Source: Niabella sp.
Lineage (GTDB): Bacteria > Bacteroidota > Bacteroidia > Chitinophagales > Chitinophagaceae
Direction of reading: 5' to 3'
DNA length: 64,000 nucleotides
NCBI GenBank assembly: GCA_017744715.1
Contig: JAGIAT010000011.1
Coordinates: 57,617 to 121,616 of the forward strand
Below are positions 23,742 through 58,386 of this stretch, piece after piece. A program made the position numbers and the translations under genes. Each line of letters opens with the position of its first letter. Position 1 is the first letter of the stretch. A model generated the notes under the pieces. It saw nothing but the letters and a program-made list of their open reading frames with translations. It had not been told where the DNA came from and did not search any database.

Positions 23742-23810
23742 TATTCTTTTATTAATCCTTCTCTTCTTTAAGTTATTTCATTTAAAACGGCATCATTGGA
23801 GTGCCTGGGG

Positions 23811-38510: not shown

Positions 38511-39295
38511 GCATGTTCTTTTAAACGGTTTACAAATGCTTCAAATGCCATGGGCGGATGCTCCTGGCGCATAAAATACTCGCCGATTAAGAACCCCTTA
38601 AATCCGTTTTCCCGGAACAGCAGGATGTCTTCAATTTTATCGATACCGCTTTCCGCTATTTTTATTTTATCCGACGGGATCTTTGCAGCCATTCTCAGGC
38701 TGCGCTCAATGTCTACCGAAAATGTTTTTAAGTCCCGGTTATTGATGCCTACAATTTTCGTTGCTGCACAAACATGCGCCAGCTCCTCCTCTGCATGTAA
38801 CTCCAGTATCGTTTCCAGTCCCAGCGAACCTGCAAATACCGCCAGCCGTTCTACTTCCGCCGGTGTAAGACAGGCTGCAATCAAAAGAATAATATCCGCA
38901 CCCATCGATTTTGCCTCCACAATCTGGTATTCATCTACTATAAAGTCTTTCCGCAAAACCGGGATGGCATTCTTCCTTGCTTCGATCAGATCCGCAACAG
39001 AACCACCAAAAAAAGGCGTATCTGTTAATACGGACAAAGCCGCCGCCCCAAATTTTGTATACGCACCGGTAATGGTGGCTACATCCGCGTCCTTATTGAT
39101 AAATCCTTTCGAAGGCGATTTCCGTTTAAATTCGGCAATGATCCCGGTACTGCCCGGGGCCAGCAGGGAAGCCGCCAGCGAACGCACCGGCGCACGGAAC
39201 GCCTCGGTTTGCTCCAACTGCTCAATAGAAGTGTGCGCCTTTCTTTCCGCCACTTCTTTTCTTTTATGTTCGATGATTGTATCGAGAATGTTCAT
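38507..39295 (-). CDS. trpC: indole-3-glycerol-phosphate synthase
   Basis: 262-aa ORF with ILDTIIEHKRKEV and IIAEFKRKSPSKG motifs. Confidence 0.95.
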   Translation of the reverse strand: MNILDTIIEHKRKEVAERKAHTSIEQLEQTEAFRAPVRSLAASLLAPGSTGIIAEFKRKSPSKGFINKDADVATITGAYTKFGAAALSVLTDTPFFGGSVADLIEARKNAIPVLRKDFIVDEYQIVEAKSMGADIILLIAACLTPAEVERLAVFAGSLGLETILELHAEEELAHVCAATKIVGINNRDLKTFSVDIERSLRMAAKIPSDKIKIAESGIDKIEDILLFRENGFKGFLIGEYFMRQEHPPMAFEAFVNRLKEHA

Positions 39296-39485
39296 GTTAT
39301 TGTTTCAGGTTTAAAGTTTCACGTTAGATCCGTTTTTATACTCGATGCACTTTTCTGGTTGAGGCTCCGTTTTTACATGCACACATTTCCACATGCACAC
39401 ATTTTCAAATTCAAATACGGTTCGCCGTCTCAGAAGAAATCAGCTGATGGCTGACCCCTGAAAGCTGACAGCTCATAGCCCACCG
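39296..39485. repeat. composite repeat element filling the trpD-trpC spacer
   Basis: gtttcaggtttaaagtttcacgttagatccg... + CACATTTCCACATGCACACATTTTCAAATT array + ...aatcagctgatggctgacccctgaaagctgacagc. It has the same ends as the 32.7-kb unit, with an insertion. Confidence 0.6.
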
Positions 39486-40478
39486 CTACTGCAAGGCGAT
39501 CAACCGCTGCAAACACTGGTAAGCCCGGCCCGACCGCAGGCTTTCTTTTGCAGCTTCAAATGCATCGGTGTAATTGGGATAAACACCCGTTACCTGCAGA
39601 GCCACGGCCGAATTAGCCAGTACCACCGCTTCCTGTTCCGCTGTTCCCCTGCCCTGTATGATATCCGAAAAAATAGCAGCCGCAGCTTCAATGGTATCCC
39701 CGCCTTTAATAGACGCCGGTTTTACCTCCATACCACCCAATGCGGTTGCCGACAGGATCTGCTCGCCTTTTGCCGTAATGAGTTTGGTATCGCCTGTCAG
39801 GGAAATTTCGTCATACCCATCCAGGCCATGTACGATCGCAAAGTCTTTCGATTGCTGTTGCATCAGGTAATTGTACAGCCTTGCCATTTCCAGGTTGTAT
39901 ACACCAATAATACTGAAGGCCGGAAATGCCGGGTTTACCAGGGGGCCCAGCATATTAAAGAACGTACGCATTCCCAGGTTCTTCCGGATGGGGCCTACAT
40001 TCTTTAATGCCGGGTGAAACTGTGGTGCATGTAAAAAACAAATATGGGCTTCTTCCAGTTCCCGGCGAAGTGCCGCATTATCGTTCTTAAATTTATACCC
40101 CATAGATTCCACCACATTGGAGGAACCACTGATGGTAGATGCTCCGTAGTTGCCATGCTTGGTTACTTTTTGCCCCGTACCGGCTACAATAAAACAAGAC
40201 AGGGTAGAGATATTGAACGTGTTCTTTCCATCGCCCCCGGTACCCACAATATCAATCGTATCCATGCCGTCAAATTCCATGGGCAGGCAAAGTTCCAGCA
40301 AGGCATCCTGGAAGCCCTGCAATTCCTGCAGGGTAATGCTGCGCATAAGGTATACCGTCATAAAAGACGTTACCTCATGCTCATTATACAGCCCTTTGCC
40401 GATGTTTACCAGCACATCCTTTGCGGTGGCCCGGTCCAGAGTCTTATGTTCAAATAACAGGGATAATATTTTTTTCAT
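39486..40478 (-). CDS. trpD: anthranilate phosphoribosyltransferase
   Basis: TrpD-like (VGTGGDGKNTFNIST). I prefer the internal start MKKILSLL at 40478. Confidence 0.93.
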   Translation of the reverse strand: MKKILSLLFEHKTLDRATAKDVLVNIGKGLYNEHEVTSFMTVYLMRSITLQELQGFQDALLELCLPMEFDGMDTIDIVGTGGDGKNTFNISTLSCFIVAGTGQKVTKHGNYGASTISGSSNVVESMGYKFKNDNAALRRELEEAHICFLHAPQFHPALKNVGPIRKNLGMRTFFNMLGPLVNPAFPAFSIIGVYNLEMARLYNYLMQQQSKDFAIVHGLDGYDEISLTGDTKLITAKGEQILSATALGGMEVKPASIKGGDTIEAAAAIFSDIIQGRGTAEQEAVVLANSAVALQVTGVYPNYTDAFEAAKESLRSGRAYQCLQRLIALQ

Positions 40479-40531
40479 TTTTTTTGCTTTAACAATGCAT
40501 CCATTCATTCCCACATTTTCAAATTTTCAAA

Positions 40532-41101
40532 TTAATCCTCCAGCCAGTTCCGTATAATCGTTTCCCCCATCGGCGTCAGCACACTTTCCGGGTGAAACTG
40601 CACGCCCTGTACATCGTAGGTTTTATGCCGCAGGGCCATAATCATATCCTGGTCATCAACGGCGGTTATTTCCAGCTCCTCCGGAAAATGATCACGCGAT
40701 ACTACCCAGGAATGGTAGCGGCCGATCTCAAAGCGGTCCGGCATGTTGTTGAACAGGTTGCCGCTGCGTTTGATGATGGTGCAATCCGTAGCCACGCCGT
40801 GGTATACCTGGGGCAGGTTATACAGGCTTCCGCCAAATGTTTCGCCGATGGCCTGCTGGCCCAAACAAACGCCCAGTATCGATTTGGAGGGTGCATATTC
40901 CTTTATCAGCGGCAGCAGCAGACCGGATTCTACCGGTATACCCGGGCCGGGCGACAGGATAATTTTATCATATTGTTTTACCTCCTCCAGCGGGATCTGG
41001 TCGTTGCGGAACACATCCACTTTCTGATGCAGGATCTTTTCCACCATATGCACCAGGTTATACGTAAACGAATCGTAATTATCAAACACGAGTAATTTCA
41101 T
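40532..41101 (-). CDS. trpG: anthranilate synthase component II (glutamine amidotransferase)
   Basis: 189-aa class I GATase with GVCLGQQ and FHPES motifs. Confidence 0.93.
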   Translation of the reverse strand: MKLLVFDNYDSFTYNLVHMVEKILHQKVDVFRNDQIPLEEVKQYDKIILSPGPGIPVESGLLLPLIKEYAPSKSILGVCLGQQAIGETFGGSLYNLPQVYHGVATDCTIIKRSGNLFNNMPDRFEIGRYHSWVVSRDHFPEELEITAVDDQDMIMALRHKTYDVQGVQFHPESVLTPMGETIIRNWLED

Positions 41102-41156
41102 ATCGGAATTTCTAATTTCTTATTTTAGTCAGATTAAAACCTGCTTTTCCACAACA

Positions 41157-41220
41157 TCTCACTACATACTTCTCACTACATACTTCTCACTACATACTTC
41201 TCACTTTACACTTCTCACTA
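41157..41220. repeat. 4.5 copies of a 14-nt tandem repeat (TCTCACTACATACT) in the trpE-trpG spacer
   Basis: Three perfect copies at 41157-41198, one degenerate copy (tctcactttacact) and a partial copy. Confidence 0.85.
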
Positions 41221-41300
41221 TTAAGCTGCCCCATGCACTCCGGCACAAGTGTGCGACGCAAGGATGCTGCCATATGCACTGCAGCCCGGCTCCTAATCAT

Positions 41301-42719
41301 TTACAAAATTTTCTCCGCCTCCACGATGGCCTTTTTTAAGGCCCCCAGTTTATTATTCACTTCCTGCAGCTCTCCCTCCGGATTGCTGGCCGCCACGATG
41401 CCGCCCCCGGCCTGGCAGGTAAGGGTATTGTTGCGACTTAAAAACGTACGGATCATGATGGCCTGGTTACAGCTGCCGTCGAAGCCCATAAACCCGATGG
41501 CGCCACCGTAAAAACTACGTGCCGTAGGCTCCAGCAAACTGATCAGCTCCATGGCCTTTATTTTGGGGGCACCGCTGAGGGTACCTGCCGGAAAGGTTTT
41601 TCCAAAAAGATCGAAGGGCTGGGTTTGCGGATAAACCGTTCCGTTTACTTCGCTCACCAGGTGAATCACATGCGAATAATAATGCGGCTCCTTAAAATGG
41701 CTTACGTGTACATCGCCGCAGCCACGGCTCAGGTCATTCCGGGCCAGGTCTACCAGCATTACATGCTCTGCATTTTCCTTGGGATCAGCCTGCAGGGTCT
41801 TTGTCTGCTCGGCATCGGTCTTATCATCACCGGTACGCCGGATGGTGCCTGCAATGGGATGGATGGTGGCCTTTCCTTTATTAATGATCAGTTGCGACTC
41901 CGGTGAGGAACCCATTAATTTATAATCACCATAATCAAAAAAGAACAGGTAGGGCGAAGGGTTGATGTTGCGTAAACTGCGGTACACATTAAACTCATCA
42001 CCCGTAAATTTTTGTGTGAAGCGGCGGCTCAGCACGATCTGGAATACATCGCCCCGGTAGCAGTGGGCGATACCGGAACGTACCATCGCACGGTGCTCCT
42101 CATCCGACATATTCGATGCTTCCCCACCTTCTTTACGAAACGGGAACACCGGAACATCCCGGCCCATGATCAGCGACTGCAGGGCCGCCCTTTCGCTCTC
42201 CACGCCTTCTATTTTGTTTTCGAGGATCAGCATTTCATCCCTGAAATGGTTGATGGCGATTACGTATTGATACAGCCGGTACCGCATTAACGGGATATCG
42301 CTGCTATTGTTTTTGAACTGGCTGCCGGGTATGGTTTCAAAAAACTGGATGGCATCGTAGGTCGTATAGCCATAAAGTCCCTGTGCATAACGGGCTTCCC
42401 TGCGCTCGCCGGGCTCCGCCTCAAACCGGCCCATAAAGTCGGCCAGCACATCGGTGATCTTTTGGTTGCCGGAGAGCCGGATCTTTTCCGCTGTATGCCC
42501 CGGCAATTTCAGATCAATGGTATCACCCGAGATCATTTCAATACCGGCAATGGCGTTTACCCCGATAAACGACCAGCTGTTGTTGGTGGCATTATTATCG
42601 GCGCTTTCCAGGAGGATGGTATCCCGGAAGCGGTCGCGCAGGCGCAGATAGATACCCACCGGCGTAAAAATATCGGCAAGCAACGACTGTACTTCTGTTT
42701 GGATCCTTATTTTTTGCAT
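41301..42719 (-). CDS. trpE: anthranilate synthase component I
   Basis: 472-aa chorismate-binding enzyme (LLESAD..., GAIGFMGFDG). Confidence 0.95.
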   Translation of the reverse strand: MQKIRIQTEVQSLLADIFTPVGIYLRLRDRFRDTILLESADNNATNNSWSFIGVNAIAGIEMISGDTIDLKLPGHTAEKIRLSGNQKITDVLADFMGRFEAEPGERREARYAQGLYGYTTYDAIQFFETIPGSQFKNNSSDIPLMRYRLYQYVIAINHFRDEMLILENKIEGVESERAALQSLIMGRDVPVFPFRKEGGEASNMSDEEHRAMVRSGIAHCYRGDVFQIVLSRRFTQKFTGDEFNVYRSLRNINPSPYLFFFDYGDYKLMGSSPESQLIINKGKATIHPIAGTIRRTGDDKTDAEQTKTLQADPKENAEHVMLVDLARNDLSRGCGDVHVSHFKEPHYYSHVIHLVSEVNGTVYPQTQPFDLFGKTFPAGTLSGAPKIKAMELISLLEPTARSFYGGAIGFMGFDGSCNQAIMIRTFLSRNNTLTCQAGGGIVAASNPEGELQEVNNKLGALKKAIVEAEKIL

Positions 42720-43024: not shown

Positions 43025-43098
43025 GGTCCGGTAGCTCAGCTGGATAGAGCAACTGCCTTCTAAGCAGTAGGTCATTGGTTCGAATCCAATCCGGATCA
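43025..43098 (+). tRNA. tRNA-Arg (anticodon TCT)
   Basis: Folded by hand into a 74-nt cloverleaf. Acceptor GGTCCGG/CCGGATC, D arm GCTC/GAGC, anticodon stem ACTGC/GCAGT with loop CTTCTAA, T arm ATTGG-TTCGAAT-CCAAT, discriminator A. Confidence 0.93.
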
Positions 43099-43102
43099 CC
43101 TG

Positions 43103-43896: not shown

Positions 43897-44223
43897 TTAT
43901 GCGTCCTTTTGTCGGTATTCTAAAAGTAGTTGGGCTATCTCTAAATCAGAATATCCTTTGTCCTTTAGGTCTAAATCAGATTCTATTAACTCTACTGCAT
44001 AATCTACCGGAAACAGTTGAACGTATTGTATTCCTTCTTTTTCAAAAACAAGGTCATCCTCCGTTTCCTCTATCTCAAAAATGAAAATATCAGATTCCAA
44101 ATCCAAAATCCCTTGCAGATAGATTAGTAGTGCTTCGGATTCTGTATTTACTCCCTGCTCTTGGTACAGTTCGTCCAACTGCTCAGGATTGGTCAAGTAT
44201 TTTATCAATTCAACTAATTTCAT
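43897..44223 (-). CDS. putative immunity protein for the upstream WHH nuclease toxin (acidic, 108 aa)
   Basis: It starts 12 nt after the toxin stop, is strongly acidic and AT-rich. I recognised no family. Confidence 0.45.
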   Translation of the reverse strand: MKLVELIKYLTNPEQLDELYQEQGVNTESEALLIYLQGILDLESDIFIFEIEETEDDLVFEKEGIQYVQLFPVDYAVELIESDLDLKDKGYSDLEIAQLLLEYRQKDA

Positions 44224-44235
44224 ATCTTTTGTTTT

Positions 44236-44709
44236 TTATTTTCCCCAAATTGACATTCCACCAATACCGCCCGGGTGCATAGTATTCCAAAACGGACTTC
44301 CTAGAGAGTGTTGTGTTTTCGGAACTAACTGCATTACCCCCGCATTTATATCGTGATGCCATACCCAATTAGTCGGGGATTTTCCTAATATATTTCCCGT
44401 TGACGAACGTGGAATTGAAATTCCTAACTTAGACATTGAACTTGAAAAAGCTGCATCAGAAGCCATTGCATTACTTAAAGAGGTATTGGCTGCTTTAAAG
44501 TGACTATAATAACCCTTCCCCGGATATAGGTTGCTAGCTAACTTGGTTTCAAAAGCAACTGAATATTGAGCACCTGAACCTATCGTCTCAGCTGCAACTG
44601 CTTCCCTTGCACCAAAAAAAACACTGTTCGCAGCGTTTGTATTCGCCACAAAAAACAACAGCAACCCGATAAGATATAACCATCTTTTCACATCGGTAAA
44701 TTTAATCAT
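44236..44709 (-). CDS. small secreted toxin with C-terminal HNH/EndoVII-fold WHH nuclease domain
   Basis: N-terminal hydrophobic signal/anchor. The C-terminus SPTNWVWHHDINAGVMQLVPKTQHSL...HPGGIGGMSIWG fits the W-HH...M.LVP..H...H.GG pattern of the WHH toxin family, as I recall it. Confidence 0.6.
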   Translation of the reverse strand: MIKFTDVKRWLYLIGLLLFFVANTNAANSVFFGAREAVAAETIGSGAQYSVAFETKLASNLYPGKGYYSHFKAANTSLSNAMASDAAFSSSMSKLGISIPRSSTGNILGKSPTNWVWHHDINAGVMQLVPKTQHSLGSPFWNTMHPGGIGGMSIWGK

Positions 44710-45522: not shown

Positions 45523-45834
45523 ATGAGCCTCTGCCGGAAAGAAAAAAAGCTCTCGCAGGCTGACCTGGGAAAGCTTTCCGGTATCAATGGCGATATAATA
45601 GGTAAATATGAGCGTGATGAGATGAAGCCCAGCATTGACACCGCTAAAAAACTGGCGGATGCCCTTGCCGTGTCCCTCGATTACCTGGTGGGCGATGGAG
45701 ATTTAAAAATACTGGATAAAAAAACACTTCAGCGGCTGGAAGATATTGAAAAACTATCCGAAGCCGATAAACAAAATATTTTCTATACACTCGATAACCT
45801 TATCAAAGCTGCTAAGCTCAAAGCTATTCAATAA
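45523..45834 (+). CDS. XRE-family helix-turn-helix transcriptional regulator
   Basis: KKLSQADLGKLSGINGDIIGKYERDEMKPSIDTAKKLADALAVSLDYLVG is a Cro/C1-type HTH. A stop lies 15 nt upstream of the ATG, so the first helix looks shortened. Confidence 0.8.
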   Translation: MSLCRKEKKLSQADLGKLSGINGDIIGKYERDEMKPSIDTAKKLADALAVSLDYLVGDGDLKILDKKTLQRLEDIEKLSEADKQNIFYTLDNLIKAAKLKAIQ

Positions 45835-45836
45835 TA

Positions 45837-45858
45837 AAGCCCGGACGCTGCCGGGCTT
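45837..45858. terminator. bidirectional hairpin terminator between the convergent XRE and immunity genes
   Basis: AAGCCCGG acgctg CCGGGCTT, with A-run and T-run flanks. Confidence 0.6.
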
Positions 45859-45871
45859 CTGCTTTATTCTT

Positions 45872-46402
45872 TTAAATCTTTTGATTGGCGATTTTATATT
45901 TCAACTGATATGATGATGGCAGATTATCCTTATTAAGTTGGTCTATTATTTTGATAAACTCCTTATAGCTGCCATTTTCCCATGCCTTATTAGCAGCAGC
46001 CAAATTTTGTTCCTGTAATATTTGAGAAGTATATGCTTCGCTTTCTTTCTCACTAAAAATTTTAATTTCAAACAATTTACTTTCATCACCTCTTAAAAGA
46101 ACAGAACCGCTATTTTTCAAAAGCAAAGCAATATTATCTACAAATACCTCCTTCGTTACCTGATTAACTTTTACATCCAAACCAAAGACATGCTTAATTA
46201 AATTATCACTAATAGGATATAAAAACTCATTTATCTTTCCTACTTCAAAAAGGCAGGTTCTGTCTAATTCATTGTAACTTATTGTTGCTTCTACAATTTT
46301 AGATTTGAAATGAAAATAATTCTTATACTGCTCAACAACAAGGAAACCATGACCTTCAAATAAAGGCACTATATTTTTTATTACAAGTTGATTAAATTCC
46401 AT
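45872..46402 (-). CDS. putative cognate immunity protein of the RHS C-terminal toxin
   Basis: An ATG at 46402 (MEFNQLV...) lies 11 nt after the RHS stop. Alternative start 46435 overlaps the RHS gene. The gene is very AT-rich (~32% GC on a sampled line) and I recognised no family. Confidence 0.55.
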   Translation of the reverse strand: MEFNQLVIKNIVPLFEGHGFLVVEQYKNYFHFKSKIVEATISYNELDRTCLFEVGKINEFLYPISDNLIKHVFGLDVKVNQVTKEVFVDNIALLLKNSGSVLLRGDESKLFEIKIFSEKESEAYTSQILQEQNLAAANKAWENGSYKEFIKIIDQLNKDNLPSSYQLKYKIANQKI

Positions 46403-46413
46403 TGCTATTGCTT

Positions 46414-49400
46414 TTAAAATCCTGGTGGAAGCCATGCTCCGTGACTTGGGCTATAAATCCAACCTCGACTTTGTAATAAATTTCTTTCAGCATTTAAAAA
46501 ACCTTTTGTTGGAATAAGATTGCCATTCGGTAATCGGTATGAATCAAAAATGGGATTACCTGCACCCATTTCACGTCTTAAAAAACCTGAATTTTGTTTC
46601 CAATTTAATTTAGGAGAACCTTGGTCAAACATCTTGAGCATTCTATCTCCTGCTTTCCATCCTCCCGATTTTGTAGTTTGCTCTGCACCAAACTTAAATA
46701 AATTCAATCCGCCTTCAGTTCCCCCCTTAGCGGCTTCAATAACTTCGGGGGCTGATTTAAACAAGCTTGCTATTTTCAGGGGCGCCGTGCCTAACCAACT
46801 TGCTGCCGAGTTATGAATCCCAAAAGTACCCACACTATGTTGTGGCCAAGGTCCATCTCTACCATAAATTTCCTCATCATTATAAGTGGTGGCTTGTTCA
46901 GATGTGATTACGCTATTAACTATATCAACAATATCCCCATTGCCCATCAATCTGAACAGACTCTTTATTTCTCCACCGGCAGTTGTTATTAATTTTAATT
47001 CCGATCCTACATTTTCCAAACCCTTTCGCTCACCGCTTCCCTCAAACCATTTATAATAGGCCTTCCCAGTATTGCGATTTTTTCCCTTGTACCAATCCCA
47101 GGGCTCCATATCATCATCATCATTTGAGGAAGACGCCCTCATTCTTGCCCATGATATAAGCTCTGCAGCTCCTGGAATGGGTGCCATCCCATCCGGATCG
47201 ATAAACCGTATTGGATTGTCAAAGGCATAATTATACGGTGAAAACCGGCGCATCTGGTCTGCCAGCGGGTCTGTCACATGCCATCTCCCGATCTGTGCAT
47301 CATAGAACCGCGCGCCATAGTCATGCTGATCCAGTCCCAGGTCCGCCTGCAGCTCTTTTCCGTTATACCCGTACTTATTTTGTAACCCCGGTGTTGCATT
47401 TTGTAAGGAAATGCCCTTCATCGCCAACCCGAACGGATAGTAATGCGTTTCCTCCAGCAGGGTTCCGTCCTCGTTCACCACCGAACGCACATTCCCCAGG
47501 TGGTCCTTCAGGAAATAATCAGCCGTAAAGGAGCCGCCATCCGGGCGCATACGGCCTTCCTCTGTTGCCACATACTTCAGCACATGATTTTCAAAGATCA
47601 ATCCCCCCAGATAGGTGGTTACTTTTGTCGGCTGCCCGTTTTCCTCAACCGTTTTGCTCAGCTTGTTGCCGGCGGCATCATATTTGTAGGAAATCGTGCC
47701 CTTATTGGCTACAGCAATTTCCTGTGGCAAATTTAGGATATTATAACTGATCCCCGTGATGCCCTTGTTCAGGTCACTGGTAAGATTGCCATTGTCATCA
47801 TAGGTATAATCGTCTCCCGTGTTGGCACCATTATTAAAATCGCCCAGCTGATAACTCCGGGTATCAGCGGCCATTTCGTCTACCCGTTTCAGCTTATTGC
47901 TTAATCCGTTCTTCATATAGCTGTAATGCAGCTCGTCGGTTTTTACCGACAGATTCTGGTTGCTTACAAAACCATATTGGGTCATCTGCCGCATATTGCC
48001 GTTAAAATCATAGGCGGTGGCCGGGTCAACTCCATTGCCCAACTGCATATCGTATTTTACACTGCCCGTCACCCCTGCGGCTCCAGCGATGAAACTACCA
48101 CTGCTGTACTGCCCGAAGTCGGCTTTCATCAGCCGGTTGGCCCGGTCATAGCTGAACTGGTACCGGCGGATCGCCCCGGTGTTGTTGCTCCCCCTTCCCC
48201 TCCAGGTCATTCCGGCTATATTCCCGTTGTAGGATGCACCGGTATAATTATTAATGGCGGCATTGCTATGACTGGTCTTATTATTATTGGTTTTATCATA
48301 CGCCAGATCAAAGCCCAAAAAACCACTTGTTGCCGAAGTTCCGCTGTTCACGTAATCCCTGTTCATACCCAATAGCCAGCCCCGTATATTATAGTCAAAC
48401 AACTGGGTTTCAAGGGCGCCACCGCCATTTACCCCCAGCTTTTTGGCCTCCAGCTGGCCCAACTCATTATAATAGTTCCGAGCAATGATCTTATCCTCAC
48501 TGGCAATGCCCGTGAGGTTATTCACTATATTTTTTGTTACTTGCACTACCCTGCCCAGCGCATCAAAGGTATTCCGGGTTATCGTGGTCAGCGAAACGGC
48601 CGTACCAGTTAATTTGGTCTGTTCATTTACAACCACCAGCGGCTGCCCGGTCCAGCTGTACTGGGTGGTTACCATGTCTGTACCGCCGGTATGATTCCTG
48701 CTTTTTACCTGTATGGGGCGATCCCTTTCATCATAAATAGTAATGGAGGTAGCAGATTGATATCCTGGTTCGTTTATTGACACAACCCTGTTGCCGGTTT
48801 GCAGTCCCTTTGTCCGCGTATCCTGTGTATTTAGTTGGGCATATGGGAATTGACCAGTAGAGGGCAGCAAGTAACTGTCATGCCCCGTACTATACGTGCC
48901 GTTTAATCCGTAAAGATCCGGATAATTTGCAATCCAATCATAGTTATCATAAAACGTTTCCGTAAGCGGGGTGGCATACTCTAGCATTGAAATAGTAGGG
49001 TATTGTATGTTGCTGTTGTCCCCAGACAGTCCCATGGCAGCAGTCCAATGCGTAGCAGGATTATTATCCTGAAGAAACACCAGCCCCGTTTGTACCACGC
49101 GGTTCAGGTGATCATATTTTGTATAATTCCAGGCAGCATTCACCTTTAAGTTTGCATCCTGTGTCAGTACCAGGCGGTCCCGCGCATCATACACCATTAC
49201 CACGCGCTCCGCACCGGGCAGCTTTTTAACGATCATTCGCTTATAATCGTCATATTCATACCGGAAGCACTGCTCATTGAGCAGGTCTGGAGTCAGATAC
49301 CAGCCGGAGCTGTTCATTGCATTCACGCCTTCCGGCTGTACCACGCAACGCAGGTTGCCGGGCCGGTCATAGATATAATAGGTACAGAGCCAGCCGCTGT

Positions 49401-52400
49401 GACCCTTTCCGGGGCCATCATCGGCAGCGGCTAATAGCTGCACTTTTTTTAATACCACCTGTCCTTCCTTGTTTTTAAACTCCACTACCTGGCTTCCGTG
49501 CTCATCGGTAGTGATCAGCTTGTATAAGGTGCCGGGGGCATACATGTACGCTGTTGTATTGATATAACTGCCAAAGTCGCCCATTGCAGTAGCATCCGTT
49601 ACATCCCAAACGCGTACGGAATCCTGCACCGTATTAAACAGGTGTTTACTTGCGATGCCGCGACCGGCGCCGCCCCAGCTGCTACCGGGGGCAAACTGCT
49701 GTGTAACCCGGCCCAGGGGTGATGCTTCAAATTCCGTGCGGCTGAAGAACTGTGTTTCGTTCTGACCGGAATAGGGATTGCCGTTGCCACTGTAATATTC
49801 CTGCTGCTGCACCGTTGCCTGGTCCTTATACCATCCTCCACCAACCGCACTAACATAGGGCAAATAGGTTTTTGTTTGCCGGCCATACGCGTCATATGCT
49901 TCAGGTATAACCATATCCCTGTAGATGCCGGTGGCCGTGGTAAGCGCGCCTTGTTTGATCACGGTCTGCTCCGACCTGCCCAGGCCATCCAAATACTTCG
50001 CCGTATGGCTGACATCTTGTACCTCCCGGTCTGCCAGCATCCCCGGATTGGTTTCCGGGTACTTGGGCACCCATTCTTTGATAAAATTCCGGTACTCCGT
50101 TGTTGCCGGAGGAAGCGCCGAAGCCTGTATGCTTACAGCTACAGACAGGTTAATGGTCCCGGTTTTTGAACCAGATCCCTCCGCTACAATATAATAGGTA
50201 CCGGCCGCAAGGCCCGTCAGCTGGATGGCCGCCTGGAAGCTGTTGCACAACGGCCCATTATGATCATTTGACTGGATAACGGTGCCGCTGCTGTTCAATA
50301 CATGCAGATAGGTGTCGAAGCCGGAGCCGCAGGTAGAAACAGTAAGATCGGCGGCGCTGCCCAGTGTTACCTTGTAATAAATATCATCACTGGCTTGGCC
50401 ATAGTCATTCCCATACCCATTGCTTACATCATTGCTGCGCTTATCCGAATAGGTATAGATACCGGGATTGGTATAACTGCCCACCACAATGGCATTGCTC
50501 ATATTTACACCTTCCGAAGCAGGGGTGGTTGACTGCGATTGCACCACTGTTGTAATTGATAAGTTGATCGTGCCGCTACCCGTACCAGCACCCTCAGCTA
50601 CGACATAATAAGTACCCGCCGCAAGCCCCGTCAACTGGAGCGATGCCTGAGCCCCGCTGCATGAGGGCCCGTTATCATCATTGGATTGAACCAGCCCCCC
50701 GCTGCTGTTCAATACATGCAGGTAGGTATTAAAACCGGAGCCACATGTAGATACGGACAAGTTGGCCGTGTTGCCGACCGTTATTTTATAGTAGATATCA
50801 TCACTGGCCTGGCCATAGTCGTTCCCATACCCGTTGGCTCCGTCGTTGCTGCGATTGTCCGTATACGTATAGGTACCCGGAGATGTATAATTCCCCGCAA
50901 CGATGGCATTGCCCATATTGGCTCCCGCAGGAGCAGTGCCGCCTTGTACCGTTGTTGAAACTACCAGGTTGATGGTACCGCTGCTGGTGCCGTTGCCCTC
51001 TGCCACGATATAATAGGTTCCTGCAGGAAGGCCCGATAACTGCAGTGATGCTTCGGTACCGCTGCACCAGGGGCCATTGTCATCGTTATACTGTACAAGC
51101 CCACCGCTGCTGTTCAATACATGCAGGTAGGTATTGAATAAGGATCCACAGGTAGACACAGCCAGGTTGGAGGTATTGTTCACCGTTACCTTGTAGTAGA
51201 TATCATCACTGGTCTGGCCATAGTCGTTCCCATATCCGTTGCTGGTCTGGTTATTGCGATTATCCATATACGTATAGGTGCCCGGGCTGGTATAATTACC
51301 GATCACGATCGCATTACTCATATTTACCCCTTCGGAGGGCGCAGTGGGGCCATGTACCGTGGTTGTTACCGCCAGGTTAATGGTACCGCTGAACACATGA
51401 AATCCTTCCGCCACGATATAGTAGGTTCCGGGAACAAGATTGGTCAACTGTATGGAGGCGTTGCTTCCCACACAGAGCGGCCCATCGTCATTATTATACT
51501 GGATCAGGCCACCGTTGACGTTTAACACGTGCAGAAAGGTATTAAAATCAGAGCCGCAGGTATTTACCGAAAGATCGGCGGTATCGCTCACGGTTATTTT
51601 ATAGAAAATATCGTCACTGTACTGCCCATAGTCGTCTTCGTATCCATAACTGATATCATTGCTGCGTACATCGGTATAGGTATAGGTGCCGGGGGCTGTA
51701 TAATTGCCGATCACGATCGCGTTGCCCATATTCACCCCCTGAGAAGCTGAAAGGGATAGCACCGTTGTTGTTACGGACAAATTAATCGTACCCGTGTTAG
51801 TAGTATATCCCTCAGCCACGATATAATACGTACCTGCCGGAAGATTCGACAACTGAAGATAAGATTGGCTTCCATTACATATTGAATGATCATCGTTGGA
51901 CTGTACTAGTCCTCCGCTACTATTTAAGACATGTAAATACGTATCAAAATTGGAACCGCATGTTGACACGGTAAGATCCGTTGGACCGCTGACCGTTATT
52001 TTGTAAAAAATGTCGTCGCTGGGCTGGCCATAGTCGTTTCCATACCCATTGGCAGGATCGTTACTTCTACTGTCGGTGTATGTAAATGTGCCCGGCACCG
52101 TATAATTACCAATTTGTATGGCATTCCCCATCGTATCACCACCTAAGGTAACCGTAAGTCCCACACTTATATTATATGTTCCGTAGGAAGAACCATATCC
52201 CTCTACAACAATATAATATACTCCAGCAGGAATATTGGTTTGCAGGGATGATGACCTGCCCGAACAAAATGGACCGTTATCATCATTTGAGGCGACCACA
52301 TTACCATTTGCATCCAGCAAATAGAGGTAGGTGTCTAGTTGTGCCTGACACAATGATATGCTCAGGTCGGTTCTTCCGGCTACTTCAAACCGATAAAATA

Positions 52401-52629
52401 CATCGTCGCTTGCCTCGCCGTAATCATTGCCATAACCTGAAGCAGGGATATTGTCTCTCGCATCAGCATAATTATGGGATCCAATGGAATAATTACCCAT
52501 AATGACCGGATTCGTCATGTTGCTTCCCGTTGGCTGACTCAGAACATATAAATGACAGCACAAAGTAAAAAGCAGCAGTAAGAATCCCGGCAATATGGTA
52601 TTTTTCAATGACCTCTGTATTCGTTGCAT
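46414..52629 (-). CDS. RHS-repeat polymorphic toxin: signal peptide + 6 PPC-like domains + DUF6443-like region + YD repeats + RHS core (DPDGM) + 256-aa unclassified C-terminal toxin domain
   Basis: 2071-aa ORF. The RHS core is [45 protein letters not shown] (M1815 at 47185-47187). YD repeats occur throughout residues ~850-1800. Six DD.FY.....D..L.V...G.YYIVAEG units occupy residues ~33-838. Confidence 0.95.
50120..52533 (-). repeat. six tandem ~405-bp coding repeats (PPC-like domains) inside the RHS gene
   Basis: The GTYYIVAEG-coding landmark recurs at about 50190, 50600, 51010, 51418, 51822 and 52212. The repeats generate many spurious antisense ORFs in the track. Confidence 0.85.
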
Positions 52630-52647
52630 TTGATCCGTTTTAGTGAT

Positions 52648-52974
52648 TTATTTAACAAACTCCTTTTTAATGGCCTGGTATTGATCGTACTGGGCGGTGG
52701 TCATTACGGTTCTGTAATAGGCATCCCGTTTTTTTTCGATGCGTACGGACTCCCTTGCCCGGCCTACACTGTCTTCCTGCTTAAACTGGGTTCTCATTTT
52801 AGCAAGCTCTTTTTCCCTCTGCTGCTCCATCCAGTATACCTTATACCGCTTCACACTGTCTAACCCCAGAGAGGTGCTCATCCGGTCAACCCTGGAAAGG
52901 GTCGTAGTTTGCTGCTGCGCCCGGGTTTTGACGGTCATAAACAAAGGGACCATTAAAAGAAGAAGACTTTTCAT
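52648..52974 (-). CDS. small secreted basic helical protein (108 aa), possible periplasmic chaperone/adaptor
   Basis: Signal peptide MKSLLLLMVPLFMTVKTRAQ, a charged helical body and one LTxxQ-like motif (MTTAQYDQY). Its stop is 18 nt before the RHS start. Confidence 0.55.
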   Translation of the reverse strand: MKSLLLLMVPLFMTVKTRAQQQTTTLSRVDRMSTSLGLDSVKRYKVYWMEQQREKELAKMRTQFKQEDSVGRARESVRIEKKRDAYYRTVMTTAQYDQYQAIKKEFVK

Positions 52975-53088
52975 ATTGAATTGCTTTATATTTATTAGAA
53001 GTTGCGATAGGGAGCACAGGCTATTGCTGCCCTCCGGCGATCACTCACCGGTATTTATTGCATAGTCATTGGTTTTTACATCCCGGCA

Positions 53089-56000
53089 TTAATACATTAA
53101 TGTTCCGATGCTGATTTCATAAGGCTGGCCTGCTACAAGCACAACCTCGTCTCCGCTTTTGAAACTGCCATATGAACCGGGACTGTTCATATCCAGTACG
53201 GAATAAACCAAACAGCCGTTTTGATAATTCACGCCCGCACTGATCCGGATACTCACTTTATAGGTACCGGCCGGGATGCGCGCTGTATGCTCCGCCGGCG
53301 TTGAAGAATAGGGTTTAAACTTATAGGTTGCTACCACGGCATCATTCCGGATAAAATCTACACACAACATGGATGGCGCGGCCACCTGGGTTGCAATCGA
53401 ATAACGCAGCTTAACATCCGCCATAATATTTGATCCCGGGTTGTCGGGAACCGTTGTACCAGATCCGTTCTCAGCGTATGCAATGGCATTTTGGTCGGCC
53501 GATTGCTGGTCAATTCCCATCATTGTACCGCCTTCCACAATTTTATTATAAAAAAGCCAAATTCCTAAATCCTGAACATTTTGAGAGCGCATGACAGGCA
53601 CGTTCAGATACAATGGACTGGCTCCTGCACTGCTGAAATTGCGCATTTTATAAGCGTATTGTCCCAGTATACGACCATTATGATCTTTTTTCGCGATCAG
53701 CCGGCCCACGGGGTCGTATTCAAAATAGGCCGGTTTTGTATTGGGACCGGTATGGCTGCTTACACCTACCAGCGGCCGGTAGGTATAAATATCCGCAACT
53801 ATACCGGGCTGGTTAAGTCCCGACAGCAGTGCCCGGAGGTCTGCATCACTCGTTGGATTGATAATCTGGGCGTTTGATTTGTAGGATGCCGGAATGGCCG
53901 CATAGGTCTGCCCTTTCAGTTCGGCAACGGGATGCAAGAACCGGTATCCCCACAGGTATGAAACCGGCAAACCATCGCGCCCCTTCATTTCCAATATATT
54001 TCCATACTGGTCATATTCCTGGATATGCTGATCCTCTCTAAGTGGTTTTCCATTAATTGAACTGCTAAGGGCAACGGGCGCTATCACTCCTAACCCAACC
54101 GGGAATTGGCTATACTCCGTTTTCTGCCGCGCAACTTCCTTTCCCAGGGTAACATTGGTTTCAATTTCTTCGATACGCGCATTTACCATATTCCGGTTCA
54201 CCATTAAATCATAAACAGGGGTTCCTGTAAAATTATAGGCATATCTGAGTTGCTTTTCTATTTCTGCCCCCTTGCTGTCGCTGGTTTTAATTTTTGAGGG
54301 ATTCAGGTACGGCAGGTTATTATATTCATATTGCGTTACGGTTTTCAGGCTATCTGTATCGGTATACGAGGTTTCGGTTATTTTATCCGGCAGCAGCCGG
54401 CCGGACGGAATTCCATACTCGCCGTATATGAACTCCTGACCCGGATAATGTCCTGTTGATGAAAAGTTTTCAGCAGGGTTATAGAACGTCCAGGAATTAA
54501 CCGGGGTGCTACCAGAAATAACGGAGTACATTACCCGCAAAAAGGCAAAATTAACCCGGATCTGTTCCGGTTTTAAATAGGCTGTGTAGGTGAAATCTTT
54601 TTTATAGATCAGCCGGTACAGGTCATTTAATTCATGCGACAAAGCACTCGTATTATACAAATACTTCTTAACCGACTTTTGAGCCCCCATAAGCCCACCT
54701 GTTTTTAACCGGCTTATATTCGTTCCCTCAATACGGTTCTCTGCATACAGATAGGCGTTATTATTATTGTAATACTGCTCGGGGGAATAGTACTCATATA
54801 CTGTCTTCCCGGTCTTTTTTCCCAGGTCCTGGTTATACTCGGTCACTTTCTCATAATAAATGGGAGCACCGTTACTATAGGTATAATCCAGGGCCGATGC
54901 CGGCTGATAGGTCGTTTTTGTTTCCATGGTGTAAATACTGAAGCAGCTTTTCGTATCGCAGGATGTTCCCGGGTTTAAGGCTTTCAAATAGGCGATCTTT
55001 TGTTCGTACCCCACTGTTCCGTAATGAAACTGGCCGCTTTCCTTTGCACGTGCCGGGCGATTGACCAATACACCCGTTCCATCTTCCAGTTTTCCATAAC
55101 GATAGTATTTTTGTCCAGCAAATGTGCCATCCTCCTTATACGTATTAATAGCCCTGATCCGCAAACCGCCGCAAAGCTGCGGCAGGGAGTTCTGTGCTCC
55201 CAGCCAGTTGAATTGTTCTGTATAGCTGTTGGCTTCAAAATCAAAATCCGCATATCCTCCGGTAGGATAAACGATCCGTTTCAGGATGCCTCTTTTCATA
55301 GCTTCTTCACCCGGGGCCTCCGCCCAGTTATTACCGGTAACCATAATGGGAATGTTTGAGGCAAAGTTTCCGCATCCACCCTGGATATCCCTGTAAAAAC
55401 GGTCCTGGTTCCGTTTAATGGTTGGCAGCGACATTACATTCATGGAGGTATTATTTGCATACGCGATCTCCACTGTGTTATCATTGGGATACCCCCAGGC
55501 ATCGTGCCCCTTCAAATGATTGCCGAAACAGTATTTCGACTGGTATCCCAGTGCATAGCGTTCATAGGTATCCGCGCCATTCCGGATATGTAATGAATCG
55601 AGATACATCGTTCCCTGGAAATTTGGTCCATTATAGTTTTTTGCTTCTTGGGTATACACAGGTGCTGTATATGACTGGAAAAAATATACAGTTTTCAATT
55701 CCTCACCGGATGGTCCAAGTACCCGGATATTATTCAGCTTGTCTGCCCCGTTAAACTGTACTTTTCCACCGCGAAAACTGATCTCAGAAACGGAGAGCCC
55801 ATGTATATTTTGCGCAGAACTATTCGTTACTCCTGTTCGTTCATAAACGGCGTCTACAACATTATTCGTACTACTCAGACGGGGTACATGAAAATAAGAC
55901 TTGGCGCTGTTGCCATAGACCACCATATATTTCGGCGATGATATTTCATAAAAAGGAGGCAAGTAATTATAATCTGTAGTCTGCGTCATTTCCGTTCTAT

Positions 56001-56895
56001 CCGATGTATAGTAATTAATCATGCCGCAGGGGTTTTCATTATTGTAATACTCTACATAGTCATTATAACTCCTGTATGTTACCATAGCCTTGGGCGTATA
56101 ACTAAAGGATAATTCTTCAATGCCCTGGGAGCTTACAATACGTTTACATTTCCAGGCAGAAACTACGCATCCGAAACAGGTACCGTCTGCACCCGCGCCC
56201 GTAACTTCCATTCCCTTGCTCAGCAACAAATTAACATCCCCGGCACCCGATTCTCCAAAATAATATTTCGTTCCGTCCACATCTGTGATGACAAACTGAT
56301 TGTAGTTAAATTCTATTTTGATATTATCAAAAGGAACCGGCACGATGCTGTATCCCGATCCCGAGGTGTTTTTTTGAAAATAAAAAGACCCAGATTTATT
56401 GAGTAATTTATACGTAAACTTGTCGGGACTTGCATCCTTTTCCCCTGTTGCCAGGTAGTAGTTCTCCTGGTAGGAAGTAGGATAGGTACATCCGGAACAG
56501 CTCGAAGGATTCGGATAATAGGTCTTCACCAGGCTGTTATTGATATACCCCGCTGAAAGGAAATCGTCCTTACCGTTTACCGTGCGTGTAATCTGGAGAT
56601 CATTGCTTAAGGACCAGCCCAACCCGGCCCTGGTTGCCTGCTCGTTGATCCGGAAGCCGCCGGCATGGTATACCAGGTCAACCGGCAATTTTAATCCACC
56701 CACATTGATCTCATAAAATGGTATTCGTATATCCGGCACACCCGTATTATAATCAACCGGGTAATTGACCATTTTGGTCAATGCTGCCGCCTCCGGTGTT
56801 ACCGGGGTCAATTTACTTGTTTGGCCCAAAACCATGGTGTAACAACCCATTAGCAAAAAAAAACTCAAAGCAGCTATTCTAGTCCTGATCTTCAT
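53089..56895 (-). CDS. large secreted protein (1268 aa) with SpvB/TcB-like N-terminal motif and degenerate C-terminal YD-like repeats
   Basis: Signal peptide. NTGVPDIRIPFYEINVGGLKLPVDLVYHAGGFRINEQATRAGLGWSLSNDLQITRTVNG follows the TG..IP....G..L.L.Y.S....G.GWSL...I.R pattern of SpvB/TcB N-termini. YD-like FEYDPVGRLIAKKDHNGRILGQYAY and QEYDQYGNILEMKGRDG lie near the C-terminus. Confidence 0.85.
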   Translation of the reverse strand: MKIRTRIAALSFFLLMGCYTMVLGQTSKLTPVTPEAAALTKMVNYPVDYNTGVPDIRIPFYEINVGGLKLPVDLVYHAGGFRINEQATRAGLGWSLSNDLQITRTVNGKDDFLSAGYINNSLVKTYYPNPSSCSGCTYPTSYQENYYLATGEKDASPDKFTYKLLNKSGSFYFQKNTSGSGYSIVPVPFDNIKIEFNYNQFVITDVDGTKYYFGESGAGDVNLLLSKGMEVTGAGADGTCFGCVVSAWKCKRIVSSQGIEELSFSYTPKAMVTYRSYNDYVEYYNNENPCGMINYYTSDRTEMTQTTDYNYLPPFYEISSPKYMVVYGNSAKSYFHVPRLSSTNNVVDAVYERTGVTNSSAQNIHGLSVSEISFRGGKVQFNGADKLNNIRVLGPSGEELKTVYFFQSYTAPVYTQEAKNYNGPNFQGTMYLDSLHIRNGADTYERYALGYQSKYCFGNHLKGHDAWGYPNDNTVEIAYANNTSMNVMSLPTIKRNQDRFYRDIQGGCGNFASNIPIMVTGNNWAEAPGEEAMKRGILKRIVYPTGGYADFDFEANSYTEQFNWLGAQNSLPQLCGGLRIRAINTYKEDGTFAGQKYYRYGKLEDGTGVLVNRPARAKESGQFHYGTVGYEQKIAYLKALNPGTSCDTKSCFSIYTMETKTTYQPASALDYTYSNGAPIYYEKVTEYNQDLGKKTGKTVYEYYSPEQYYNNNNAYLYAENRIEGTNISRLKTGGLMGAQKSVKKYLYNTSALSHELNDLYRLIYKKDFTYTAYLKPEQIRVNFAFLRVMYSVISGSTPVNSWTFYNPAENFSSTGHYPGQEFIYGEYGIPSGRLLPDKITETSYTDTDSLKTVTQYEYNNLPYLNPSKIKTSDSKGAEIEKQLRYAYNFTGTPVYDLMVNRNMVNARIEEIETNVTLGKEVARQKTEYSQFPVGLGVIAPVALSSSINGKPLREDQHIQEYDQYGNILEMKGRDGLPVSYLWGYRFLHPVAELKGQTYAAIPASYKSNAQIINPTSDADLRALLSGLNQPGIVADIYTYRPLVGVSSHTGPNTKPAYFEYDPVGRLIAKKDHNGRILGQYAYKMRNFSSAGASPLYLNVPVMRSQNVQDLGIWLFYNKIVEGGTMMGIDQQSADQNAIAYAENGSGTTVPDNPGSNIMADVKLRYSIATQVAAPSMLCVDFIRNDAVVATYKFKPYSSTPAEHTARIPAGTYKVSIRISAGVNYQNGCLVYSVLDMNSPGSYGSFKSGDEVVLVAGQPYEISIGTLMY

Positions 56896-57990
56896 CGTTT
56901 ATGATTTTCCTTATTTAATATTTCCGTATGCTTTCAATAAGCGCAAAAATTTCCAAGACTTGAGGCTGCTCCAACTGTTACAACCCTGGAATACGATGCA
57001 CAATAAAGTTTCCTGTTTATTTTCCGGCATGAATATTACAGCCAGACACGTTCCTCTTTTTCAGCCTTATGCAACGCTATCATTCTTCTCATAAAGTCAA
57101 CACTCCCCCGCCGGTTGAGGCGGGGAACAACATCATTTACCCAAAAAGTCTATAACAGATCCGCAACAACCCCAAGAGGTTTGCTAAAAACACACCTTCA
57201 ATTCCTCACAATAATACTTGTAAGCAACAGAATATTGATTATTTCAAATGAGGGGTTCTAAAGATATCGCTCCACAGATCCAGGTTTATACGGCTTCTCT
57301 CATAGGGGTTGCCAGGTTTATCAATTTTTACTTTCTCATTTCAGTTATATTACCGCGCAAAAATACCGAACTTCACATATTATTTCCAAATATATTTTAT
57401 TTTTTTTTACTACTTGAAATATATTCTTGAAATCATCATCTTTCTTTTTTCCAATGTCATACAACTTCAGCATAGATATACTCACTAGAAAATTTAGATA
57501 GAATCTATTTGAATCAGGGATCCGGTATAGAATGGAAGCTTCCTGCACGGCATTTCTCTGTCTCGCTGAAAACGATCATTCAAATATCAAGCCCGTGGCA
57601 AGAATAAAAACCGTCGCCACCGGATGGTGGGTGTTATACTGATGGCAACCTGCAGAAAGTACTAAAAACATTTTTTCAGCTACCAAAGCTGTGACGACTG
57701 GAATGCCGAACTGCACCTGCTACTGTACCATGCCCTCACCCACTGGAGCCTGCCGGTGGTAGTAGACCTGTTCTCCCATTGGTTTTACCTCTCCAAACTA
57801 CTGGAAGCCGCCTGGCTCTTTGCCGAGCGGGAGGTAGAGTAAGCGAAATCATGGGGCACGCACCTGGGAAAGGCCTGCAGCAAGCAGCATAACTGCTCCC
57901 TGTTTTTACAATAGTTTCACCCGTTTTTGACAGAATGAGGGATCCGCCTCCGGTTCTGCCCCATACCATTCCGGCACAGGAGCTCAATGC

Positions 57991-58188
57991 AGAAACGATA
58001 TATAAACGATACAGCCAGGATACAGCCAGGATATAGCCAGGATACAGAAACGATATACAAAGGATATAGAATGGATATACAAAGGATACAGAAAGGATAC
58101 AGAAAACATACGTTTTGAGGTCAGAAGGGATCAATAGGGATCAGGAAGGATCATAAGGGGTCAGAAGGGATCAATAGGGATCAAAAAA
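57991..58188. repeat. degenerate word arrays (GGATACAGAAA/GGATATACAAA, then GGGATCAGAAG/GGGATCAATA) at the right island border
   Basis: gatacagccaggatacagccaggatatagccaggatacagaaacgatatacaaaggatatagaatggatatacaaaggatacagaaaggatacag... then ggtcagaagggatcaatagggatcaggaaggatcataaggggtcagaagggatcaatagggatca. Confidence 0.75.
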
Positions 58189-58386
58189 ATAAAACAGCGC
58201 TTAAATGCCCCAACTTTATGCAGGCAAACATTTATTGATTCACTTTTAAAAAATTACAACTATGGGCAGCGTCACCAATTCCATTTTAAGCGGCACCTCC
58301 GGCCGCACCGGGCGTATTATTATTGCCAACGTGCATGGTGTGGAAATAAGCCGCATCCGGCCTTTGAAACGCCAGTACAGATTTTA

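Follow-up and report, generated by a model that had tools for sequence, protein, structure and literature searches.

In the B-C subcomplex of the Tc toxins a B gene is followed by a C gene, both products are RHS-type beta-shells, and at the end of the C protein stand an Rhs-core autoprotease and then a hypervariable toxin. This subcomplex, represented by TcdB2-TccC3 of Photorhabdus, YenB-YenC of Yersinia entomophaga and SepB-SepC of Serratia entomophila, is the closest known system to a pair of genes that we describe here from a 64-kb stretch of a Niabella sp. genome (contig JAGIAT010000011.1, positions 57,617 to 121,616; hereafter the window). The first gene of the pair encodes a 1268-amino acid (aa) protein with a TcB-like predicted fold and the second a 2071-aa RHS toxin with a DUF6443 domain and a TcC-like predicted shell. 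A gene for a 108-aa secreted protein lies between them and a 187-aa candidate immunity gene follows, and the coordinates of these four open reading frames (ORFs; table 1) bear out the initial annotation of the window, which had described four co-oriented genes on the minus strand. We judge the pair to be a variant of the Tc B/C cocoon that has not been described before, working as a polymorphic toxin exported by Sec and lacking TcA, the concept itself being familiar.

The Niabella pair shares with the Tc subcomplex its gene order, its two RHS-type shells, here predicted, and the presumed autoprotease and variable toxin at the end of the C part, and natural B-C fusions occur in both systems (locus L053 of our survey; TcdB2-TccC3-type fusions in the PDB). 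It differs in having neither detectable TcB sequence homology nor SpvB, FG-GAP or TcdB-mid domains, and in the Sec signal peptides on both of its proteins, whereas the enterobacterial TcB and TcC have none. The latter are released by lysis (type 10 secretion system, T10SS; PMC10847048). Further differences are the lack of TcA in the window, the adjacent immunity-like gene with C-terminal displacement, the split point (the B part here is ∼370 aa shorter and the C shell ∼230 aa longer), the PPC arrays and the Bacteroidota host. A survey of Tc loci does not mention Bacteroidetes (PMC7861908).

Rhs effectors delivered by a type VI secretion system (T6SS), such as RhsA, Tse5, Tse15, RhsP and Tre23-Rhs, also combine an RHS shell, an Rhs core, a polymorphic toxin and a downstream immunity gene, and interbacterial antagonism is presumed for both. 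Unlike these effectors, the Niabella system has no PAAR or VgrG, carries Sec signals, has a shell that does not superpose on theirs and includes a large conserved partner shell protein encoded upstream. WapA of Bacillus and Streptococcus and the bacterial teneurin-like proteins resemble it in signal-peptide export, in a YD/RHS shell around a polymorphic toxin, in an immunity gene and in having no obvious delivery machine; for the teneurin-like proteins the delivery mechanism is stated to be unknown, in an article that does not mention Bacteroidota (PMC13018210). However, each of these is one polypeptide of FN-plug/NHL or cell-wall anchor architecture, found mostly in Gram-positive bacteria or, as a lipoprotein, in Myxococcota, rather than the product of two genes, and teneurins score below Tc proteins in the fold searches of both of our models.

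A further class, the “TcdB/TcaC export pathway” toxins, comprises a signal peptide, SpvB domain, integrin-like beta-propeller, RHS repeats and toxin in one protein and was reported from Bacteroidetes and from further phyla (Zhang et al. 2012; PMC3482391). The Niabella pair has the signal peptide, a B-like N-terminal region, RHS repeats and a polymorphic toxin in common with this class, and the L053 fusion shares its layout, but SpvB and the propeller were undetected here by Pfam, the B-like part is a separate gene and the marker domain is DUF6443. Our literature search found no paper mentioning DUF6443 and no description of the 1268-aa/DUF6443-RHS gene pair.

Predicted Fold and Export of the Paired Proteins

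The 1268-aa protein has no Pfam or NCBIfam match, even when Pfam was tried in pieces at E≤10, and no PDB match by sequence (phmmer). It nonetheless belongs to a family of at least 229 homologues, mostly of ∼1250 aa, all named ones of which are from Bacteroidota; a Niabella homologue (P0001) is 100% identical. A core of ∼1060 aa is kept at constant length down to ∼25% identity with dozens of invariant residues, as is, in the family consensus, the Gln that follows the hydrophobic stretch at the N-terminus. Past residue ∼1085, where the protein of the window has a domain of 180 aa, homologues instead carry DUF5977, CarboxypepD_reg/TTR stretches (five by Pfam; L057) or a 500-aa extension (P0010). 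An AlphaFold2 model of residues 25-1100 built from 61 sequences (pLDDT 90.3, pTM 0.88) consists nearly entirely of beta-hairpins, and the top five Foldseek matches to it in the PDB are all TcB chains (E 4e-19 to 3e-17, TMq 0.29-0.38), led by YenB (5kis_A and 4igl_A, E 4e-19 to 5e-19) and including holotoxin YenB (9c4k_P), TcdB1 (6l7i_F) and TcdB2-TccC3. T6SS Rhs cocoons and teneurins come after these, and TcC chains match only at E 3e-8 to 4e-7 (TMq 0.09-0.11). Searched against the PDB, a profile of 32 homologues matches nothing but YD repeats, those in Rhs and teneurin chains, over positions ∼940-1070, confirming the degenerate YD-like repeats that had been noticed near the C-terminal end, although they mark the end of the core. 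The initial annotation had also proposed to look for an SpvB domain and a partial RHS shell: an RHS-type shell is what the model predicts, but no SpvB domain was recovered by hidden Markov model (HMM).

The RHS protein is more readily annotated. As proposed from the sequence, it starts with a Sec signal peptide, read from its residues, and an array of PPC repeats, of which Pfam counts six. The array has an internal DNA self-similarity of 73% and is found in only some homologues (L019, L024, L031 and L036), as an optional N-terminal extension. DUF6443 follows and marks the RHS genes that pair with a TcB-like gene, being present in the downstream partner at most surveyed loci; at least 3149 relatives were found at E≤1e-20 among the candidates examined. 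The Rhs-associated core was matched by TIGR03696 at residues 1730-1815 (NCBIfam, E 1.1e-17, 64.3 bits vs a cutoff of 32.5). In an alignment of relatives of RHS residues 846-1830, many DUF6443-RHS proteins of ∼1450 aa have a ∼200-aa insertion between shell and Rhs core that is absent from the protein of the window.

An AlphaFold2 model of RHS residues 846-1830 (48 sequences, pLDDT 83.4) is confident over model residues 1-898 and finds its best rigid fits in the TcdB2-TccC3 fusion (TMq 0.54, root mean square deviation [rmsd] 8.9), the Tc-derived mosquito protein SGS1 (0.54) and TcC alone (4igl_B, YenC2, TMt 0.61, rmsd 7.9; 5kis_B, TMt 0.56), whereas T6SS Rhs cocoons reach only TM 0.13-0.30, with rmsd ∼30 except for one entry (8qjc, 18.3), and TcB chains only E 2e-8 or worse. 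In the predicted models the structural matches are thus reciprocal, the 1268-aa protein being TcB-like and the RHS shell TcC-like. The length of the target does not explain this specificity: one query prefers the longer target, the other query the shorter.

The N-termini of the 1268-, 108- and 2071-aa proteins each run from a basic through a hydrophobic stretch to a small-residue site followed by Gln (VLG/Q, TRA/Q and VLS/Q), and we read them as Sec signal peptides cleaved by signal peptidase I. These signals bear on the explanation that the RHS protein is the cargo of a secretion machine encoded elsewhere in the genome, with the 1268-aa protein as its adaptor or chaperone. Bacteroidota have T6SS-iii and a type IX secretion system (T9SS), the genome was searched within the 64-kb window only, and two surveyed loci (L051 and L058) have, between the pair, a gene for a beta-propeller protein that bears a T9SS C-terminal domain (CTD). 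However, both large proteins carry Sec signal peptides, which T6SS substrates are not known to have. By Pfam, the RHS protein has PPC, DUF6443 and incidental beta-sandwich matches only, with no PAAR, VgrG or DUF4150; a PAAR or other T6SS adaptor in its N-terminus was looked for by HMM and not found. Neither C-terminus is a T9SS CTD (no match at E≤10 for the 1268-aa protein; none by Pfam or NCBIfam for the RHS protein). The window contains no T6SS or T9SS gene and, as first reported from the sequence, no TcA-size ORF, PAAR, VgrG or Hcp; a TcA-family ORF is likewise absent from it. We rejected T6SS cargo because the protein is without PAAR/VgrG and has Sec signals, and canonical T9SS cargo because no CTD stands at its C-terminus, and we consider the broader explanation, with the machine elsewhere in the genome, unlikely. 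The RHS protein does give a Por_Secre_tail match (39.9 bits), but only inside a PPC repeat at residues 226-275, far from the C-terminus, and this probably reflects mere beta-sandwich similarity.

Occurrence of the Pair in Other Genomes

A genome scan provided 60 loci with homologues of the 1268-aa gene from Chitinophagia, Sphingobacteriia, Flavobacteriia, Bacteroidia and Cytophagia-like and Saprospiria-like lineages, which were classified by phmmer. Ten were uninformative (contig ends or a fragment). In 45 of the 50 informative loci, representing at least five Bacteroidota classes, the homologue occurs together with a DUF6443-RHS gene: directly upstream of it in 42, separated from an RHS gene by a 2-kb insert in two, and fused with it into a single ORF in one. 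The remaining five have no RHS gene downstream. Measured to its first ATG, the RHS gene mostly follows after 2-90 nt, and nearly all partner RHS genes start with a signal peptide, as read from sequence. Viewed from the RHS side, all five sampled DUF6443-RHS genes (from two Niabella species, Chryseobacterium, Ferruginibacter and a metagenome) have a distant homologue of the 1268-aa protein immediately upstream (E 1e-34 to 3e-56, 26-30% identity). The fusion, in a Saprospiraceae metagenome-assembled genome (L053, 10001-16210), is a 2070-aa ORF comprising a B-like N-terminal part, DUF6443 (residues 978-1074), RHS repeats and the core. No TcA-size or TcA-family ORF was found in the flanks of surveyed loci where the genes were listed.

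The initial annotation had likened the gene order to that of tcB-tcC, and this likeness is upheld by the reciprocal fold matches, the 45 paired loci and the L053 fusion. It had also proposed to test whether both the 1268-aa and the 108-aa genes accompany DUF6443/RHS genes across Bacteroidota, and this was so for the former but not for the latter.

These data also bear on another reading of the 1268-aa gene, as a degenerate RHS paralogue or adhesin gene that duplication and island structure carry along with RHS genes and that has no direct part in either the making or the delivery of the toxin. The protein has weak YD repeats and no catalytic or known functional domain, in five loci no RHS gene lies next to it, and copies of the gene are fragmented in some cases (e.g., L041). 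Against this, the length of the core is constant to ∼25% identity with its invariant residues in place, the gaps to the RHS gene are short across classes, every sampled RHS gene has its partner, and a fusion is known. The constant core, short gaps, consistent partnership and fusion argue for selection for joint function. The 1268-aa and RHS genes very probably work together in some way, and a passenger role is very unlikely.

Two other genes accompany the pair at some loci and are absent from the window. In eight loci (L065, 334-1767; L066, 1030-2460; L056, L018, L060, L031, L016 and L059) a protein of ∼476-570 aa with a signal peptide and without a Pfam match is encoded directly upstream of the B-like gene. 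It has a long helical N-terminal part, described as a coiled-coil half in the ∼477-aa form, and a strand-rich C-terminus ending in ...FRAGYNF, resembling an outer-membrane barrel, and may belong to the module as a component of the envelope. The ∼690-aa protein between the pair in L051 (13759-15828) and L058 (13808-15886) has an SBBP beta-propeller repeat and a T9SS CTD (Por_Secre_tail in L058, 32.2 bits vs a cutoff of 27). In some lineages this protein may provide both a propeller in trans and a connection to T9SS.

A Proposed Two-Subunit Container

We favor, with moderate confidence, a composite cocoon, that is, a Sec-exported two-subunit RHS toxin resembling Tc B/C but lacking TcA, of the polymorphic interbacterial kind. 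The first gene would provide a beta-shell like that of TcB, with a variable appendage for binding at its C-terminus, and the third the TcC-like part, in which six PPC repeats precede DUF6443, the RHS shell, an Rhs-core aspartyl autoprotease and a swappable toxin of 254 aa. Both proteins would reach the periplasm via Sec and signal peptidase I and join there, most likely as one container enclosing the self-cleaved toxin. Binding would fall to the PPC array and to the B-like protein's variable C-terminus, the 187-aa protein would shield the producer, and the 108-aa LTxxQ-like protein would be a local, dispensable periplasmic helper. The central idea of the initial annotation, a Tc-like B part followed by a C part without TcA, stands and is now better founded, through the reciprocal folds, the near-universal adjacency and the natural fusion, its interpretation as a whole being partly supported.

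Several observations weigh against a composite cocoon. SpvB (PF03534) is absent at E≤10 from the 1268-aa protein, whether searched whole or as residues 1-300, and FG-GAP/VCBS (PF13517) and TcdB-mid (PF12255 and PF12256) do not match it, whereas the 120 listed relatives of the reference SepB (pADAP) all carry PF12255, PF12256 and PF03534, PF13517 being unrecorded in just two of them. Comparison of the 1268-aa family with SepB by hhalign aligned only residues 72-109 with SepB 55-87 (E 0.069), and comparison with a 20-sequence TcB alignment gave E 0.068 and a probability of 0.8%. The sole aligned part is a motif, L.YH....G.GW, at a similar N-terminal position in SepB, and it is not significant; the SpvB/TcB pattern initially reported at the N-terminus amounts to this short motif. 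Because the Pfam models miss it and the hhalign results with SepB and TcB are insignificant, the 1268-aa protein is not a TcB/SpvB family member at the sequence level. The TM-scores of its model to TcB are modest, the Rhs-core segment of the other model is of low confidence, and five loci lack the partner. In addition, the trees of the B-like and C-like proteins agree significantly but modestly (Pearson 0.45, reached by 0 of 2000 permutations; Spearman 0.14), with a nearest neighbor common to both trees in 15 of 33 cases; some reassortment is therefore likely.

Finally, the DUF6443-RHS protein has ∼900 structured residues against ∼670 in TcC. In size it comes near to the complete Rhs cocoons of T6SS effectors (960-1050 aa), and it might close a cocoon by itself. 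The 1268-aa protein would then not be part of the wall but an accessory docking on DUF6443, for instance an anchor to the surface, an adaptor for receptor binding or a factor for passage through the outer membrane. The moderate congruence of the two trees is compatible with such a role, the variable C-terminal modules of the family (DUF5977, CarboxypepD_reg/TTR and others) resemble binding modules, and the barrel-like gene or T9SS-CTD propeller at some loci suggests passage through the envelope. Yet the RHS shell fits the wide TcB-TcC cocoon and TcC half-shells (0.54-0.61) rather than the self-closed cocoons of T6SS effectors, the 1268-aa protein is itself predicted to be an RHS-type shell nearest to TcB, and the fusion places the B-like part N-terminal to DUF6443 as in TcB-TcC fusions. 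We regard a self-closed RHS cocoon with a docked accessory as rather doubtful and retain the composite cocoon.

The pair frames a concrete question: with neither TcA nor T6SS, by what route does a Sec-exported RHS container exit a diderm cell and deliver its toxin? We suggest tentatively, as one possibility, that the B-like and DUF6443-RHS proteins are the core of an unrecognized, phylum-wide delivery route of Bacteroidota, which would cross the outer membrane and enter targets without TcA, T6SS or a canonical T9SS signal, using its own variable binding appendages and, in some lineages, helpers such as the ∼477-aa barrel-like protein or the T9SS-CTD propeller. A split TcB/TcC-like cocoon would give a structural role to the ∼1250-aa partner family, which is phylum-wide, annotated only as “hypothetical” or “YD repeat” and without a Pfam family, alongside DUF6443-RHS genes that are very numerous in Bacteroidota. 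It would also extend the Tc B/C architecture from the toxins of insect pathogens to apparently interbacterial polymorphic toxins, in a phylum where the pair is carried by tractable genera such as Flavobacterium, Pedobacter and Chitinophaga.

Toxin and Candidate Immunity Genes

A contig of Niabella pedocola (L001) matches the window at 98-99% and is collinear with it from position 57643 down to 47134 at 98.4% identity (blastn). The breakpoint falls at RHS residue ∼1832, just past the core motif, and similarity resumes at 43851, so that the toxin and the 187-aa gene lie inside a segment that is replaced in N. pedocola. In its sequence layout this replacement is the classic C-terminal displacement of polymorphic toxins. 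The G+C content is 45.3% in the 1268-aa gene, 50.2% in the RHS shell, 41.5% in the C-terminal toxin and 29.6% in the 187-aa gene. The contrast initially drawn between the 1268-aa gene (37-42%) and the RHS core (57-63%) does not survive measurement, and the only real compositional break coincides with the displaced toxin/immunity module.

Neither the C-terminal toxin nor the 187-aa protein has a family or solved-structure match in Pfam, NCBIfam or the PDB, and many different C-terminal toxin domains, by their Pfam accessions, occur in members of the RHS family. We take the accessions found in relatives to be AHH, GH-E, JAB, MPTase and amidase domains. The 187-aa gene is a candidate immunity gene, and other bacteria are the presumed targets because an immunity gene is present and because the relatives carry nuclease, amidase and peptidase toxins. 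The start of this gene allows two readings: the first ATG gives a 22-nt overlap with the RHS stop codon, and Met-12 (176 aa) a start 11 nt past it. Of the three gaps first given for the operon, 114 nt (1268-aa to 108-aa gene) and 18 nt (108-aa to RHS gene) are exact, and the third, 11 nt, applies only to the Met-12 start.

The strain-variable segment also holds a gene for a 157-aa protein whose N-terminus is hydrophobic and which has a nuclease domain of the WHH/colicin-DNase kind. An acidic 108-aa ORF comes next, and the two are likely a second toxin/immunity pair. A gene for an RstR-like helix-turn-helix (HTH) repressor lies in the same segment.

The 108-aa Protein and the Flanking Region

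The 108-aa protein has no direct Pfam match. A whole-library phmmer search returned ∼20 weak matches (E 1e-5 to 1e-3), those of 107-115 aa aligning over nearly their full length. These weak relatives touch DUF4890, LTXXQ and Metal_resist (PF16231, PF07813 and PF13801) below threshold; the cutoff for DUF4890 (29.7 bits) is passed by two tandem relatives (32.8 and 34.8). The LTxxQ-like character initially ascribed to the protein is thus at most a remote likeness, beside a signal peptide that is read from sequence. The protein is not a conserved component: a comparable small secreted gene occurs between the pair in only 7 of 44 split-gene loci and belongs to different small-protein families. Among the fetched loci a phmmer homologue was found only in N. 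pedocola, and a conserved third component was rejected on these grounds. Of the small signal-peptide proteins in the six other loci, five are helical with an LTPxQ-type motif or related layout and the sixth is OmpH/Skp-like (E 4.6e-5). An HMM of the weak relatives of the 108-aa protein matched these proteins marginally (L015 at E 3e-4, the rest at ≥0.07). We read the 108-aa protein as an optional, lineage-specific periplasmic helper outside the core module, perhaps chaperone-like.

Table 1. Features of the Niabella sp. locus (positions in the 64-kb window)
Feature	Position	Strand	Basis or remark
Leader, presumed promoter region of operon	56896..57643	-	Non-coding; upstream end of N. pedocola collinearity
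Gene for 1268-aa protein	53089..56895	-	
Signal peptide of 1268-aa protein, residues 1-24, MKIRTRIAALSFFLLMGCYTMVLG/Q	56824..56895	-	Read from sequence
Conserved core, predicted TcB-like shell protein, residues 25-1085	53641..56823	-	AlphaFold2 and Foldseek; distant homologues stop at ∼1085
Variable C-terminal appendage, residues 1086-1268 and stop	53089..53640	-	No Pfam match at E≤10; modules swapped in homologues
Gene for 108-aa secreted helical protein, remotely LTxxQ/DUF4890-like	52648..52974	-	Weak phmmer matches
Gene for 2071-aa RHS toxin	46414..52629	-	
Signal peptide of RHS toxin, residues 1-31, ...HLYVLS/Q	52537..52629	-	Read from sequence
Six PPC beta-sandwich repeats, ∼135 aa each, residues ∼32-845	50095..52536	-	Pfam PPC, E 3.4e-30, six stretches
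Internal Por_Secre_tail match, residues 226-275	51804..51953	-	Within PPC repeat
DUF6443 domain, residues 852-995	49645..50076	-	Pfam, E 8.5e-34
RHS/YD-repeat shell, residues 996-1729	47443..49644	-	AlphaFold2 and Foldseek
Rhs-associated core, presumed autoproteolysis motif ...RFIDPDGM/A, residues 1730-1817	47179..47442	-	TIGR03696; motif read from sequence
Polymorphic C-terminal toxin domain, residues 1818-2071 and stop (254 aa)	46414..47178	-	No Pfam/PDB match; low G+C
Candidate cognate immunity gene, 187 aa (176 from Met-12)	45872..46435	-	Abuts or overlaps RHS stop; lowest G+C
GC-rich hairpin, probable operon end	45837..45858	.	8 pairs, 6 of them G-C; consensus match only
RstR-like HTH repressor gene	45523..45834	+	Strain-variable segment
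157-aa WHH nuclease gene and acidic 108-aa ORF	43897..44709	-	Strain-variable segment; likely second toxin/immunity pair
tRNA-Arg(TCT) gene	43025..43100	+	
Tandem repeats, 10-11 nt units	57990..58105 and 58121..58187		

The leader of the operon contains no ORF of ≥100 aa, and a scan for sigma-70 promoters was at chance level (35 found vs 31.5 expected). The hairpin that probably ends the operon is placed between the convergent 187-aa and HTH genes, and no strong terminator-like site was found in the two short intergenic gaps of the operon. An Rfam scan of the window returned one tRNA only.

The RHS cassette adjoins the tRNA-Arg(TCT) gene, which lies ∼750 nt past the point where similarity to N. 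pedocola resumes. At the other end (57644-58386), just beyond 57643, the tandem repeats fall in a gene-poor stretch of 1.5 kb, and the upstream neighborhood is unlike that in N. pedocola. The flanks of the window are of housekeeping character, including trp genes, tRNA-Arg, an amidohydrolase, esterases, SecA and LptD. The tryptophan genes form two blocks ∼13 kb apart, trpA/trpB and trpE/G/D/C/F (22968-25007 and 37875-42719), with lipopolysaccharide-transport and other genes between them.

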